A DNA stretch of 62,461 nucleotides, filler included. It is 8 parts of 8 records of this genome, joined end to end, with 100 filler letters (N's around TTAATTAATTAA, not from the genome) between each part and the next. Parts side by side here need not be neighbours in the genome. Positions count along the whole stretch, not along the records: positions 56,791 to 62,461 come from SRR31147125_64591; 7 more parts are not named here. One strand, given 5' to 3'. Shown piece after piece: positions 23,408 to 62,461 of this stretch. Position numbers and translations under genes: made by a program. The notes beneath the pieces are model-generated. The model saw only the letters and a program-made list of their open reading frames with translations, ran no database searches and was not told the DNA's origin. The first letter of the stretch is position 1. Each line of letters starts with the position of its first letter.

Positions 23408-25680
23408 TTACCGGATAACTTCAATCTTTATTTCTCCTGCAATCAATTTGTCCGATTCTGCTCTAACTAATATTGTTCCCGGATTTTTATATGGACGAAC
23501 AATTGCCTGTGCTTTCCCTTTCCAGGAATTCACGATTGAATTATTTACACTCTCCATGTCTCCAGGATTTGCATTCCCGGAAGCTGCCAGTTCTCCAGAA
23601 CCACTGATTGTAAGTCGAATCGGAATTGAATCAGTTGGAACCACTGTTCCGTTTTCATCCACGATTTCAACTTTCACAAATGAAAGATCGTTACGACTGG
23701 CAGTAATTTGGGTGCGGTCGGCGGTCAATCTTATTGATGTTGGTTCACCGGCAGTTTTTAATATTTTGCTGGTAATTTCATTTCCGTTTTTCAGAGCAAC
23801 AGCTTTTAATTCTCCGGGCTGATAAGGCACTTCAAATTCTGCAATATATTTATCTTTTTCAGTTAGATTTTTCTCGCCAACTATTTTCCCATTTAGTTCC
23901 AGTCTAACTTGTTGTGCTTTTGAAAAAATTCTAACATTTAAAGGTTTTCCTTCTTCGCCTTTCCAGCTCCAGCTTTGGTATTCTTTTGGCCAACCCCAGC
24001 CACCGATGTTTTCTGCAAATCCTTCAGGGATAGGTTCATGTACACTGACTTCCAGGCTGCTGTTGTTCCAAAGTACATTACGGTAATATAGTTGTGCTCT
24101 TTTTCTCCGGTTATATCAATATCACCGCATTCAGCTATAAAGTGCGGCCATGCTGAAGGTCTTCTTTGCTGCATGTCAAAAATGTTTACTCCTTTAGGCA
24201 ATTTGAATCCGGCAAAGTTTCCTGAAACGGTTTCCCCGGTTGTAGACGGAACATAACTGGAACTCCCGATTGATGTTTCACCCAGGTAATCCATGGCTGT
24301 CCACACAAAGTCTCCAATTACATAGGGATATTTCTCTACTTTTTCCCAGTAATCAAAAGCATCTTTTGCGTAAGATTCAGATGTGTAAATAATTCTATTG
24401 GGATACAATTCGTGGTCTGCTTCAATATTGTCGAGCATATAATTGTATCCGCAAACATCCATTAATTCAAAAACAGGTGTGGTTGTTTCCCAACCATCGG
24501 GATAGAAAAAACCTGTAATAGCCAATGTTACCGCCCTTGAATTATCGAGTTCTTTTACTTTGTTGGTTAGTTGTTTGGCAATCCGCAGCCGTGTAGAATC
24601 CTCAGGTTCGTAAATTTCATTTCCAATGCTCCACATAATAATACTCGGGTGGTTTCGGTTACTTGTCATCCAATCGGTTAAATCTTTTTCCCACCACTCT
24701 TTAAAGAAAATAGAATAGTCTTGCGGGCTTTTATAATATTCCCACATGTCGGTAAATTCATCGATAACCAACATTCCAAGCCGATCGCAGGTCTGGTAAA
24801 AAGTCTCTGAAAATGGATTATGTGAAGCACGGATGGTATTAAACCCGTTGGCCTTTAAAAGTTCTACTTTTCTTTCTTCGTACTCGGTTGAATGCGGCGG
24901 AACCCAGTAATCCGTTATCGTGGTGAATACAAGCTCCTTTTAGTAAAACTGATTTTCCGTTTAGCAGGAATCCTTTTTCAGCTGAAAATTCGATGGAACG
25001 TATTCCAAAACTTTGATTGTACTTGTCGAGTGTTTTATTTCCTTCTTTAATACTAATTTCAGCAGAATACAGATTAGGAGATTCCAACGACCACAACTCC
25101 GGATTTTCGACCCTGATTTGGTTTTTAATCGTTATATCAGATTGAGATTCTACTGTTATTTGTTTGGCAGCAGCACCCACAATATTTCCTTCTTTATCTT
25201 TAATATTGATTGTAATTTGAGGTGCTGTTTCTTTTTGGCCATCGTTTTGAACAGTAAGTTCTAAATTTACCAAAGCTGAATTATTATTAATTTCGGGCGT
25301 TGTAATTTTTACACCCCAAACAGCGGTATGAACGGGATTTGTTAATGAGAGATGCACATTTCTGTATATTCCTGAGCCGGTATACCAACGTGAGTTTCTT
25401 CCCTTGTTTTCAACTTTTACGGCAATTACATTTGTTTTACCGGGTTCGTTTAAAAACTCAGTTATATCGAACCAGAAAGGAGTATAACCATTTTTATGAA
25501 TACCGGCTTTTTTACCATTTATCCACACTTCTGATTCCATATAAATACCATCAAAGTTTAAAATGGCGGTTTTACCTTTGTCTGCTTTGTCGATTGTGAA
25601 AGATTTACGATACCAGCCAGTTCCGCCAATAACCTGCCCTGTAGAATTTCCGTTACCCGGCGAATTTTTGGAAAATGGCT
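23408..25680 (-). CDS. GH2 beta-galactosidase, 5' truncated, with about two frameshifts (near 24100 and 24880)
   Basis: RWYTGSGIYR, GACIHHDNG, NHPSIIMWSIGNE, GDFVWTAMDYLGE and PYQPGELKA pieces in three frames. Confidence 0.85.
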
Positions 25681-58894: not shown

Positions 58895-59806
58895 TTACAC
58901 CTGAAGTGCGCCAATTAGTTCTGTAATATCCTGAACATTATGACGTTTCATATAATCTTCAATCCCATTTACGATTTCAACAGGTAACAATGGATTTTTA
59001 AATAAGGCAGTACCAACCTGCACAACCGATGCACCAGCAAGAATAAATTCGATAGCATCGGCAGCATTTTGAATTCCACCGATACCAACAACCGGAATTT
59101 TTACAGCATTAGCAACTTGCCAAACCATTCTTAAAGCAATAGGTTTTATAGCAGGTCCCGACAATCCGCCTGTAATAGTAGAAAGTTTTGGTGTGCGGCT
59201 TTCTGCGTCAACTGCCATTCCCAAAAAAGTGTTTACAAGCGAAACAGCATCAGCCCCCTGCCCTTCTACAGCTTTTGCAATCTCGGTTATGTCGGTTACA
59301 TTTGGCGACAACTTAACAATCATTGTTTTATCGTATACTTTTCGCACTTCACGTGTAACCATTTCCGCTCCCGGACAACTCACCCCAAAGGCCATTCCTC
59401 CTTCTTTTACATTGGGGCACGAAATATTTAATTCAATTGCCTTAATCTTATCGAGTTCGTTTACCTTTTCAGTTAATGCAATGTAATCTTCTACAGTAGA
59501 ACCGTTTACATTTATAATCAACTGGGTATCGTAATCAACTATTTCAGGATAAATATTCTCAATAAAATGATCGATACCTTTGTTTTGTAGTCCAACAGCA
59601 TTTAACATTCCCGATGCTGTTTCTGCCATCCTGGGATAAAGATTTCCATCGCGGTTTTTAAGTGTAGTACCTTTTAGAAAAAAGCCTCCTACTTTCTCCG
59701 GATTATAGAATTCAGCAATTTCACGGGCAAATCCGCAGGTTCCTGAAGCTAAAGTGACAGGATTTTTAAACTCTAAATCGTGTAATTTTACTTTTAAGTC
59801 TACCAT
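58895..59806 (-). CDS. pyrD: Dihydroorotate dehydrogenase class 1B, catalytic subunit
   Basis: [33 protein letters not shown]. Confidence 0.95.
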
Positions 59807-60576
59807 TTTAATTCATTAATGTTAAAAACCGGTCCGTCAGTACAAACACATTTATTTCCTTCTTTAGTTGGCTCAATACAGCAAAGGCACACTCCTATTC
59901 CGCAAGCCATAAGGTTTTCGAGCGAAACCTCGCAAAAAATACCGGCCGCTTTTGCTTCTTTGGCAATTGCGCGCATCATAGCATCGGGGCCACATGCATA
60001 AATTTTATCGTAGCCAGCCAGTTTTTCTGTAAAAACAGAATGCTGGGTTACAAATCCCTTATCACCTAAGCTTCCGTCTTCTGTTGCAAAATGTAAACCA
60101 GCATATTTATTGTAACGTTGTACATCAAAATGGTCGTCTTTTGAACGGGCTCCCAAAAGAATATCAACATTTTCTACCGGTAATTTAGACTCTTTTGCTA
60201 AGAATAACATAGGCGCAACTCCACTACCACCACCAATAAGCAATATTTTATCAGATTCAGCAGGGCGCGTAAAACTTTTACCAAGCGGATAAACCAGGCT
60301 TAATTGAGCACCTGTTTCAATTTCAGTTAGTTTCTTCGAGCCTTTGCCTAAAACTTTAACCAGCAGCGTAATTGTATTTTCGGTACTATCAACCTCAAAA
60401 ATTGAAAAAGGGCGTCTAAGATATACATCTTCAGCTCCTTTAACCTCAACGTTTACAAACTGTCCGGGTAATATTTCGGGTAAATCAACGCTCGACCTAA
60501 CTTTAATCTGGTGAGTTGATGAATTAAGTGCTTTGTTTTCGACAACTTCGAAATCGGTAACAAATTTTTTACACAT
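59800..60576 (-). CDS. pyrK: Dihydroorotate dehydrogenase electron transfer subunit
   Basis: [27 protein letters not shown]...C.DGPVF. Confidence 0.95.
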
Positions 60577-60640
60577 AAAAATGAATTTGCGTGCAAATAT
60601 AGTAGAAATATTTCTTCAGTGAGATCTTAATATATTAAAC

Positions 60641-60718
60641 AAAAAAAAGACCGCAGGGAACGGTCTTAGATAAGAAATTTATAATCGGATTAAAAAATAA
60701 AGGGTCTTTGTTTAAATA
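60641..60718 (-). ncRNA. Candidate sRNA 1 (about 80 nt)
   Basis: Bacteroidota promoter TTTG(60755-52)-20nt-TACATTTG(60731-24); terminator aagaccg/cggtctt plus U8; no ORF. Confidence 0.55.
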
Positions 60719-60812
60719 TGAAACAAATGTAATTGCAATATTTCACATATGCAAAATATTTATTCATTTTTTTTACATTTTTAGTAGGGTAAAAAGTTCT
60801 TATTTATATAAA

Positions 60813-60936
60813 CCAGAAAAGGCCACTAAAATTAGTGGCCAAGCGACTTCTGGAATTATCACATTCAAATTGGGTTTGTAAAAAAATCTATCTTGTTTTA
60901 TCTATTTTGTTTATCTCAACTTTTCCTTAATTGTTA
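60813..60936 (-). ncRNA. Candidate sRNA 2 (about 120 nt)
   Basis: TTTG(60973-70)-20nt-TACATTTG(60949-42); terminator ggccactaa/ttagtggcc plus U tract; no ORF. Confidence 0.55.
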
Positions 60937-61062
60937 CACTACAAATGTAATATACATTTTTTACATGTGCAAACTTTTTTGAAAATAATTTTACATTTTT
61001 AATCGAAGGTGTGATTAACGCTTGTTACATATGTGCCGTAGCTGTTTTACATTTATACATTA

Positions 61063-61265
61063 GAAAAAATAAAACCAGAAGAATGCTATCTTAAACGATA
61101 AACATTATCTCCTGGTTTTAATATTGGAAAGACTTATATTACAAATAAATTTACTTAATCACCTTTATTTATTAAGCAAGAACTAATAATCATGATTGAA
61201 TTATTAAACTTATATAGTCCTTAATAATTGTAATAACAGTCTCAACAAAACATACAACGTATACA
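61063..61265 (-). ncRNA. Candidate sRNA 3 (about 200 nt; contains only a 12-codon ORF)
   Basis: TTTG(61302-299)-20nt-TACATTTG(61278-71); long hairpin 61070-61120 plus U tract. Confidence 0.45.
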
Positions 61266-61299
61266 CAACACAAATGTAAATACATTTAATTACAAATGC

Positions 61300-61329
61300 A
61301 AAAAAAGACTGTTAACAATGGAACAGTCT
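61300..61329 (-). terminator. Terminator of the HTH gene, overlapping the -33 box of unit 3
   Basis: agactgtt-N8-aacagtct with U7 on the minus strand. Confidence 0.7.
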
Positions 61330-61362
61330 CTTTCAAAATAATATTGGTAATAACGAAATTGA

Positions 61363-61809
61363 TTACTTACTTCTGTTGTTATACGAAGCAAAGGAGCCAT
61401 CTTTGTATAGCAGAACTACCTTTTCAACATTATCGTCGAATATATTGGCAACTTTTATTTGTTTCGGCTGTTCTTCCGTAGCCTTATGAACTTGTTCTTT
61501 TGCTACAGGTTCAGGTGTCTCTACTTTAGAATTAATAAAAGGCAGTTCTTCCTGCTTTTCTGACTTACTAACAGTAATAGTAGTTGAAATATTTTGTTGC
61601 TGGTATAACATCTCTCCCTGACCGGTTAACAGCCAACGAGCGTTTAAATCAGGGTATCTGATCAACATTCTCTCTATAAAAGCAGCACCAGGCTTATTTC
61701 GTCCGTTAAGGATATGCGAGATATTAGAACGCTGAACTCCTATATCAATAGCTAGTTCACCGGCACTTTTACCTTTATTATCCATATACTCTTTAATTCT
61801 CTCTTTCAT
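61363..61809 (-). CDS. Xre/cI-type HTH transcriptional regulator (Bacteroidota type)
   Basis: LAIDIGVQRSNISHILNGRNKP...WLLTGQGEM; C-terminal EKVVLLYKDGSF. Confidence 0.88.
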   Translation of the reverse strand: MKERIKEYMDNKGKSAGELAIDIGVQRSNISHILNGRNKPGAAFIERMLIRYPDLNARWLLTGQGEMLYQQQNISTTITVSKSEKQEELPFINSKVETPEPVAKEQVHKATEEQPKQIKVANIFDDNVEKVVLLYKDGSFASYNNRSK

Positions 61810-61886
61810 CGTGACGGATTTAATGACTTACAAAAATGTAAACCAACCATAATGTGTGCTTAAACATCAAAACTTCAACAGTAAGT

Positions 61887-61918
61887 ACAAATGTAACAAA
61901 CATTTTACCCTTTAGCAA
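61887..61918 (-). promoter_or_regulatory. HTH gene promoter with the same ACAAATGTAA box
   Basis: TTG(61918-16)-20nt-TACATTTG(61895-88); extra TTACA-N4-TGTAA palindrome at 61828-61841 in the leader. Confidence 0.6.
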
Positions 61919-62461
61919 CTATTTCTTATTTATTCCCAGATATATTAATGTCAAGAAAATGGCTGTTTATCATTCTAAACAGCTTAAGGCAAACCACATA
62001 AAGCACTGATTAATAGCGGATTTATATACACATGCGAAGCCAAAATACTATCAAAAGTCGAGCATGTTACACTAAAGAATGAAATGCGCTTTAGATAAAA
62101 CCTACAAACAGTTGATATAGTGAGAAATATGATGATTTTTAGATGGCTGTTATGAACTGTTTTTTTAATATTAAATTTGTTAACTCCCCTACTCTATCAT
62201 TGTATAATGAATTTTTAGTTGTAATAATTATTGATACATATTTGTACACTAACTGGAAATCGAAATTAATTTCAATCTTGTTAGCTGTGTACAATTGTAA
62301 TATTTGTGATTTTGCTCGTTTTAACAAATGTATAATCACATTATTTGGAAATAGAACAAGCTTATTTATTTAAAATAAGCAATTCCAAAAGGTTTGGTGC
62401 TCTTTCCTATTCTGGTAAGAATAAATTAATTGTAATTTTTTTAACGAAGATTTCTTTTTTT

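Follow-up and report, generated by a model that had tools for sequence, protein, structure and literature searches.

Three candidate small RNA genes in tandem between an Xre-type regulator gene and pyrK in Bacteroidota, with a palindromic box in their promoters

Introduction

In the stretch of DNA considered here, which is 62,461 nt long as a whole and is called the window, a gene for a small Xre-type protein with a helix-turn-helix (HTH) domain is separated from pyrK, the next gene on the same strand, by a spacer in which three promoter–terminator units follow one another. The locus raises the question of whether these units are genes of small RNAs (sRNAs), and whether the HTH protein controls them through a short palindromic box found in all three promoters and in that of the HTH gene itself. 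The sRNA biology of Bacteroidota is young; in the available part of PMC7366714 few regulators and targets are known, and the classical RNA chaperones are described as missing. Nothing on such a locus was found in open-access papers and preprints, supplements excluded.

Architecture of the three units

The spacer from the HTH gene to pyrK was found to be 786 nt long. Its minus strand contains three promoters of the form TTTG-N20-TACATTTG (60724-60755, 60942-60973 and 61271-61302), each followed by unrelated sequence and then by a hairpin with a U tract; the units thus have the promoter elements in common and not the sequence that would be transcribed. The general form TTTG-N19-21-TAnnTTTG, which is the promoter published for Bacteroidota (TTTG around -33 and TAnnTTTG at -7; available part of PMC7366714), occurs four times on both strands of the window, and three of these matches are the unit promoters. 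The transcription start was set 5 nt past the G of the -7 box for the prediction of RNA lengths, since the -7 box of Flavobacterium psychrophilum extends from -12 to -5 (available part of PMC9723704). A terminator scan of the window gave the hairpins at 60647-60667 and 60821-60840, and the third terminator, 61070-61120 with its U tract, was taken from the fold of unit 3. The features of the spacer, in the direction of reading, are as follows.

61363-61809, minus strand: Xre-type HTH gene, 148 aa, identified as an open reading frame (ORF) with Pfam HTH_19/HTH_31/HTH_3
61269-61302, minus strand: promoter of unit 3, TTTG-N20-TACATTTG, with boxes TGCATTTGTA (61291-61300) and TACATTTGTG (61269-61278), 22 nt apart
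61064-61266, minus strand: predicted unit 3 RNA, about 203 nt, GU-rich at the 5' end, with a long helix inside and the terminator 61070-61120
60940-60973, minus strand: promoter of unit 2, TTTG-N20-TACATTTG, with box TACATTTGTA (60940-60949)
60810-60937, minus strand: predicted unit 2 RNA, about 128 nt, with the unpaired box UUUACAAACCC (60872-60882) and the terminator 60813-60853 (inner hairpin 60821-60840)
60722-60783, minus strand: promoter region of unit 1, TTTG-N20-TACATTTG at 60724-60755, with box TACATTTGTT (60722-60731)
60639-60719, minus strand: predicted unit 1 RNA, about 81 nt, with motif GACCCUUUAUUUUUUA (60691-60706) and the terminator 60647-60667
60594-60601, minus strand: -7 box TATATTTG of pyrK, without the palindrome
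59800-60576, minus strand: coding sequence of pyrK, with pyrD next

An earlier note on this DNA had described three minus-strand units of this kind with RNAs of 80, 120 and 200 nt. The architecture was recovered, the predicted lengths of 81, 128 and 203 nt agree with those given, and the promoter consensus quoted is the published one. The gap, called ORF-free and about 780 nt long, indeed contains no ORF of at least 60 aa, but ORFs of 31-57 aa, none of them conserved, are present. The identical 10-mer ACAAATGTAA, placed at 60723, 60941, 61270 and 61887, was found at these four positions and also at 25426 on the other strand; dinucleotide shuffles give an expectation of 0.16 copies in the window, and none of 100 shuffles reached five. 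The pyrK promoter does lack the 10-mer, as claimed, but its -7 box lies 2 nt away from the position assigned to it.

The locus in related genomes

With a profile of the HTH protein, 80 loci were fetched from reference genomes, and all genome-wide statements below rest on genomes of relatives, not on that of the window. Of the 80 loci, 72 have pyrK behind the HTH gene on the same strand, separated from it by an AT-rich stretch of 70-1587 nt (median 709); seven of the eight remaining loci end at a contig edge. The 72 gaps contain 52 forward matches and a single reverse match to TTTG-N19-21-TAnnTTTG, distributed over 38 loci. In three of them (L002, L007 and L043) three promoters occur at offsets of about 65, 390 and 600, compared to 60, 389 and 607 in the window, and when the gaps are read side by side the parts predicted to be transcribed are orthologous. 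The units do not result from chance, as they recur at unchanged offsets in relatives (Maribellus, Draconibacterium, Mariniphaga and others).

In a further 20 more distant genomes, whose HTH protein is 29-55% identical, pyrK lies 31-188 nt past the HTH gene in every case, and neither an sRNA unit nor the box of unit 2 described below was found in any of the 20 gaps. The HTH-pyrK pair is therefore ancestral, and the sRNA units are a later insertion in one sub-lineage. The carriers include the cultured isolates Maribellus, Draconibacterium, Mariniphaga and Tangfeifania.

The unit 2 RNA

The box of unit 2, TT[AG]CA..CC, typically GAUUUACAAACCC, is present in 61 of the 72 gaps, five loci having two copies in tandem. 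In an alignment of 40 sequences UUUACAAACCC shows no or hardly any variation and is not part of a consensus helix, and the family also shares GACAAGAUGAU and, before the terminator, ACAGAAG. The sole consensus helix given by RNAalifold for the 40 sequences is the terminator, in which six of eight pairs show compensatory change; apart from the terminator, the unit 2 sequence of the window folds no better than its shuffles (z -1.21). No conserved ORF was found in the 40 sequences, the median longest ATG-ORF being 5 aa, and seven of them, including that of the window, have no ATG before the box.

A covariance model of unit 2 (R1) was run on five whole genomes and gave a single match in each, in every case at this locus. 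In a family sample it matched 25 of 151 genomes, with 23 candidates scored per genome, so that misses are not absences. In 23 of the 25 the match has the strand of the HTH gene and lies downstream of it by less than 1 kb; in the remaining two genomes gene and match are at the ends of separate small contigs. A search at the level of the order, again with 23 candidates scored per genome and hence no proof of absence, gave matches in four of 151 genomes, and the three outside G001 were rejected as false positives, being weak and having no HTH gene, pyrK or box nearby. A search of the window against Rfam 15 at E up to 10 gave no match inside the units, and with E up to 1 the HTH-pyrK gaps of six loci gave none either. 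Unit 2 thus belongs to a candidate new sRNA family, conserved and single-copy, with no counterpart among the Rfam models.

The combination of promoter, invariant box in an unstructured body, and terminator is that of sRNAs which act in trans by base pairing, for example GibS, and by this analogy unit 2 most likely does so, on presumed targets, through the UUUACAAACCC box. Like the intergenic sRNAs of B. thetaiotaomicron, of which GibS is one, it has a sigma-A promoter of its own (here a predicted one), a Rho-independent terminator and low G+C, as well as a largely unfolded body with a conserved single-stranded stretch, which in the GibS type is the seed (available part of PMC7366714). In contrast to these sRNAs, with which there is no sequence relation, three unrelated units here stand in tandem behind a regulator gene and have a palindromic promoter element in common.

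Two side observations concern the same RNA. In seven of the 40 sequences (L003, L010, L022, L037, L038, L050 and L074) the AUG of GACAAGAUGAU opens a frame of 13-24 codons through the box, a frame that in most members, including that of the window, is missing or stops after 1-7 codons. The element AAUCCAGAAG in unit 2 of the window, Maribellus and Draconibacterium resembles part of the PyrR-binding loop, which is only a lead towards the leader role considered below.

Units 1 and 3

With a length of about 75-85 nt, unit 1 contains the motif GACCCUU(U)AUUUUUUA ahead of its terminator. It was found in 19 of the 72 gaps, always as the last unit before pyrK, and its fold in the window has a z of -2.81. 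In L004, L005 and L033 it comes directly after unit 2, and no promoter of its own was seen. In relatives (L133-L141) the motif, as GACCCUU(U)AUUUUUUAUC, was observed at 2-5 places per genome compared to 0-1 for controls, with a terminator 20-60 nt past each copy; some copies lie just past the stop codons of unrelated genes, and three are orthologous across genera. These copies may be a family of sRNAs or 3'-UTR (untranslated region) elements with one seed or protein site.

In Maribellus and Draconibacterium unit 3 is about 100-110 nt long, with the 5' end GUUGUUGUAGAGAA. At the same place the window has a predicted RNA, likewise GU-rich at its 5' end, of twice the length and only loosely alike in sequence. 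Its predicted fold is strong (minimum free energy -45.8 kcal/mol, z -4.13, none of 200 shuffles as good), and a search of relatives for the unit 3 motif gave counts near chance. The predicted RNA of unit 3 is structured and faster-evolving. The coding potential of units 1 and 3 was judged by eye.

The HTH protein

The HTH protein scored 30.5 against a cut-off of 27 for HTH_31, 30.2 against 30.2 for HTH_19 and 23.7 against 23 for HTH_3, and no NCBIfam model reached its cut-off. The AF2 model comprises a five-helix HTH domain in residues 1-67 (helices 2-12, 16-23, 27-34, 42-51 and 57-62; pLDDT about 95 over residues 1-70), a disordered linker of about 55 residues and a conserved C-terminal beta-hairpin (strands 130-134 and 140-144). 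The recognition helix VQRSNISH is invariant. Homologues at 44-55% identity occur in Maribellus, Draconibacterium and many metagenome bins. The gene was detected in 143 of the 151 genomes of the family sample, with a single match in all but one. A homodimer prediction scored 0.28 against a mark of 0.32 and weighs neither way.

The closest solved relative of the domain is Bacillus subtilis SinR (1b0n, 3qq6 and 5tn0), a weak match (E about 2e-3, residues 3-60). SinR binds arrays of short sites of varied orientation and spacing over promoters. It is likewise a small Xre-type HTH followed by a separate C-terminal part; that part, however, is a helical multimerisation domain in SinR, whereas in the present protein it is predicted to be a beta-hairpin after a disordered linker. 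The HTH protein is not a member of the SinR family.

The palindromic box

The 10-mer is part of a 10-bp palindrome, TACAWWTGTA, which coincides with the sigma-A -7 element. The non-coding DNA at 60577-61362 and 61810-62461 has 11 sites with at most one mismatch to it, compared to 0.94 in dinucleotide shuffles, and none of 1000 shuffles reached 11; exact sites number three against 0.03 expected. The rest of the window has eight sites. Within the locus, the HTH gene and each of the units have a box over the -7 element, and unit 3 has one over the -33 element as well; three more lie between units 3 and 2, one is upstream of unit 1, and two are about 500 nt upstream of the HTH gene. The sites that do not belong to the promoters listed above are the following, together with that of the HTH promoter.

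62290-62332, minus strand: boxes TACATTTGTT (62323-62332) and TACAATTGTA (62290-62299), 33 nt apart, about 500 nt upstream of the HTH gene
61886-61895, minus strand: box TACATTTGTA at the HTH promoter, whose -7 element TACATTTG is at 61888-61895
61828-61841, minus strand: box-like palindrome TTACA-TTTT-TGTAA in the 5' leader of the HTH gene, with a 4-nt centre instead of 2
61048-61057, 61026-61035 and 60992-61001, minus strand: three box-like sites between units 3 and 2, spaced by 22 and 34 nt
60774-60783, minus strand: box-like site TAAAAATGTA upstream of unit 1, 52 nt from box TACATTTGTT at 60722-60731

In relatives, box clusters were found at a similar distance upstream of the HTH gene, and a box lies 42-57 nt downstream of its -7 box (by eye). 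The related sRNA promoters have a second near-box, TGCAWATGTA, over the -33 element, and the composite TTTGCAnATGTrAA-N8-14-TACATTTG has six matches, all at this locus, in three of five genomes (5.6-6.1 Mb), with none in controls.

The six spacings between neighbouring boxes in the window are 22, 22, 33, 34, 52 and 52 nt, and over 73 regions the spacings peak at 22, 32-33, 42, 52-55 and 63-66 nt. When each of the 22 sequence clusters is represented by a single member (n=35), a period of 10.5 bp gives the highest resultant length, 0.51.

The box accompanies the HTH gene throughout the family. All of 75 loci have TACATT[TC]G in the 200 nt ahead of the HTH start, and the 260-nt regions ahead of the gene in the 20 distant genomes together contain 43 boxes against 3.2 expected, with at least two boxes in 16 of the 20. 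These distant regions include box copies of the form TACAAATGTA, which cannot be -7 elements, since they are without TTTG. Paired boxes, ACAWWTGTA-N8-38-TACAWWTGT, were found at the HTH promoter in four of five distant genomes (3.4-7.6 Mb) and not in controls; the only other occurrence lies inside a lipoprotein coding region, and the fifth genome has none.

A few neighbouring findings are recorded here. The substitution K39M in the HTH protein occurs only alongside the TTCG variant of the box (13 of 22, against 0 of 53 without it), an association which is probably due to shared ancestry and was not used as evidence. Further TTTGCAAATGTAAA sites in relatives proved to be -7 boxes of the opposite strand. 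In L088 and L092, of two genera, the full 11-mer TTACATTTGTA is present in the promoter of the gene for the primary sigma factor (rpoD-like, the protein starting with MRQLKITKQVTNRD). A different palindrome of 14 bp, ATGTT-N4-AACAT, was observed 57-59 nt upstream of the unit 2 -7 box in 13 single-unit loci with short gaps (L015, L038, L041 and L074 among them), and again in Maribellus and Draconibacterium (L087 and L091), where it precedes by about 56 nt the -7 box of another tandem sRNA-like unit of about 100 nt. It does not occur in the window and is probably the site of a second regulator.

Regulation of the locus

The earlier note had regarded the units as three sRNA genes, the box as a shared operator and the whole as a regulator-plus-sRNA cassette. 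The first view agrees with the promoter, the conserved unpaired box, the terminator and the lack of a conserved ORF, and Rfam, proposed as a check, assigned the units to no known cis-element in the searches described above. Homologous loci in relatives, also proposed for comparison, keep the promoter and terminator repeats, but the cassette is not family-wide, the 20 distant genomes being without sRNA. As for the operator, the tie of the box to the HTH gene is family-wide, but the palindrome coincides with the -7 element and the 10-mer alone proves little.

From these data a regulatory scheme can be proposed as the simplest account, one whose prospects we consider evenly balanced, in which the HTH protein would bind the boxes and repress itself and the sRNAs until some signal releases it. 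TACAWWTGTA would be the operator, and the protein would sit on the -7 and -33 elements of its own promoter and of the sRNA promoters. Because the boxes lie over these elements, it would act as a repressor, rather than an activator, of its own gene and of the three sRNA genes, and the signal would release both. An old HTH-pyrKD pair with its box array has gained one to three candidate sRNA genes in one sub-lineage, with promoters carrying the same boxes over -7 and -33. The proposed regulation is directly testable, since several carriers are cultured isolates.

A number of observations weigh against this scheme. As the 20 sampled distant genomes have no adjoining sRNA, control of sRNAs cannot be the primary role of the HTH gene. 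TACATTTG is a common -7 variant, nn being CA in 114 of 648 background TAnnTTTG boxes (17.6%); among 96 candidate promoters in the flanks, 21 have the CA variant and 11 of these the full TTACATTTGTA, which genome-wide is at chance level (8, 10 and 17 sites compared to 5, 16 and 12 in controls). The box was found, in two genera, also at the promoter of rpoD and at a further sRNA-like unit, and could therefore be a form of strong promoter or the site of a different factor. For these reasons the 10-mer alone is weak evidence of an operator, and the operator case rests on the extra box copies and the paired boxes. Stricter paired-box patterns, however, gave no match at the HTH locus in five genomes of the window's clade and relatives, 8 of 24 spacings in the distant set are 55-58 nt and hence off the 10.5-bp phase, and a 10-bp palindrome is short for a classical HTH dimer. 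On the side of the RNA no target was found: the complement of the unit 2 box, GGGTTTGTAAA, is at chance level with 9-12 sites per genome against 5-12 in controls, and pairing of unit 2 with the start regions of pyrK and the HTH gene is no better than background (mean duplex energies -15.1, -12.1 and -14.6 kcal/mol).

Much of this would be expected if the sRNA genes are real and the HTH protein is not their regulator, the box being the preferred strong sigma-A -7 element of the lineage or the site of another factor. The HTH protein would then act on pyrKD or elsewhere, and the sRNA genes would have landed in a permissive spacer, the main rival account, which we consider possible though rather unlikely. 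The background and flank frequencies, the chance genome-wide count and the box at rpoD all speak for it; in the available part of PMC7366714 the canonical promoter is found at 76% of the intergenic sRNA candidates of B. thetaiotaomicron, and the HTH and pyrK genes adjoin without an sRNA in all the sampled distant relatives. It leaves unexplained, however, the boxes that are not -7 elements, that is, those in the TACAAATGTA orientation, the TGCAWATGTA over -33 and the copies 30-65 nt upstream, as well as the near restriction of paired boxes to the HTH promoter and the uniqueness of the composite sRNA promoter pattern to this locus. The units, above all unit 1, have also to be considered as cis leaders or attenuators, with read-through of the terminators tuning pyrKD to pyrimidine nucleotides. 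The constant position of unit 1 just before pyrK, its long U-rich stretch ahead of the terminator and the three loci in which it follows unit 2 without a visible promoter fit such a role, which we nevertheless regard as improbable: no Rfam match, that of the PyrR site included, was obtained in the searches described above, in every clade pyrK retains a conserved -7 box of its own past the last terminator, and the gene is without these units in most of the family (20 of 20 sampled). Moreover, the terminator helix alone is conserved, with no alternative antiterminator helix, and the unit 1 motif occurs also at unrelated places, including the 3' ends of other genes.

Very improbable, finally, is that the units are non-functional, that is, decaying duplicates of the HTH promoter with chance hairpins, or else genes of tiny proteins. 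Units 1 and 2 do have a promoter segment of 61 nt in common with 74% identity, which suggests duplication, and unit 3 of the window is poorly conserved; in ten of the 40 sequences of unit 2 an ORF runs through the box, and in seven of these it ends in ...DLQTR(F/N/I). Against this reading, the RNA boxes stay invariant, amid varying flanks, between genera that share about 50% identity in the HTH protein, compensatory changes keep the terminators, and the promoter matches are strand-biased 52:1. The tiny-protein variant meets the difficulty that the ORF is missing or cut short in most members, including that of the window.

It is tempting to speculate further, and we do so tentatively, with the odds against it, that the HTH protein, the putative repressor of the scheme proposed above, is a family-wide, single-copy regulator linked to pyrKD that senses nucleotide (pyrimidine) or redox status, and that its operator promoter was copied three times before new RNA genes in one sub-lineage. 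The link of the HTH gene with pyrKD would then predate the radiation of the family, and the three unrelated sRNAs would be the post-transcriptional arm of the regulon. If so, the locus would be the first module of transcription factor and sRNA defined in Bacteroidota, a phylum without Hfq or ProQ, and would show sRNA genes caught being born by duplication of promoter and operator.

Relation to known systems

In the enterobacterial pairs OxyR-OxyS, GcvA-GcvB and SgrR-SgrS the gene of a transcription factor adjoins an sRNA gene with the site of the factor in its promoter, and the factor regulates its own synthesis. These pairs are divergent, have one sRNA and involve LysR-type or other activators. 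The present locus is similar in that the regulator gene adjoins the sRNA (61 of 72 loci, and 23 of 25 RNA-positive genomes) and the same box, the putative site of the HTH protein, is present in the promoters of both; it differs in that the sRNAs are downstream, on the same strand and three in number, the factor is of the small Xre type and the position of the box suggests repression. Tandem sRNAs, each with a promoter containing the site of a regulator and with a terminator of its own, are known as PrrF1/PrrF2 (Fur) and OmrA/OmrB (OmpR), which are near-identical duplicates, in contrast to the three units found here, which share the promoter elements and not the transcribed sequence.

Both a regulator beside its sRNA and tandem sRNAs under one operator are thus known themes in Proteobacteria. 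The novelty lies in the candidate sRNA families, in a family of small Xre-type regulators tied to pyrKD, in the array of three unrelated sRNAs and in the setting in Bacteroidota. The locus offers a conserved sRNA family outside Rfam together with a candidate dedicated regulator with a clear and short putative operator, and a natural series of genomes with 0, 1, 2 or 3 sRNA units behind the same regulator gene. It would show how new sRNA genes can join an existing regulon.

Flanking features

A possible fourth transcription unit of about 360 nt was noticed upstream of the HTH gene (61955-62332, minus strand), with a -7-like box TACATTTG at 62325-62332, a box at 62290-62299 and a weak terminator-like hairpin at 61962-61983. 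The window stops at 62461, and the gene upstream of this unit is outside the view. The HTH gene itself ends in a terminator.

61299-61329, minus strand: terminator of the HTH gene (hairpin 61306-61329), AGACTGTT/AACAGTCT with a T tract, found by eye and absent from the scan list

The T tract of this terminator extends into the -33 TTTG of unit 3.

On the other side of the spacer, pyrK starts about 20 nt past its own -7 box, and in the distant relatives (L113-L132) the pyrK -7 box begins about 10-20 nt from the HTH stop codon. A conserved TATCTTTG-N4-CAAA is present ahead of pyrK in relatives. The idea that TTTG-N4-CAAA is a special operator of pyrK was rejected; as it recurs at 2-6 places per genome, compared to 0-1 for controls, it is a general form of promoter plus start site. 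The G+C content of the window is 0.49-0.55 at 50-56 kb and 0.25-0.44 from 56.4 kb on.

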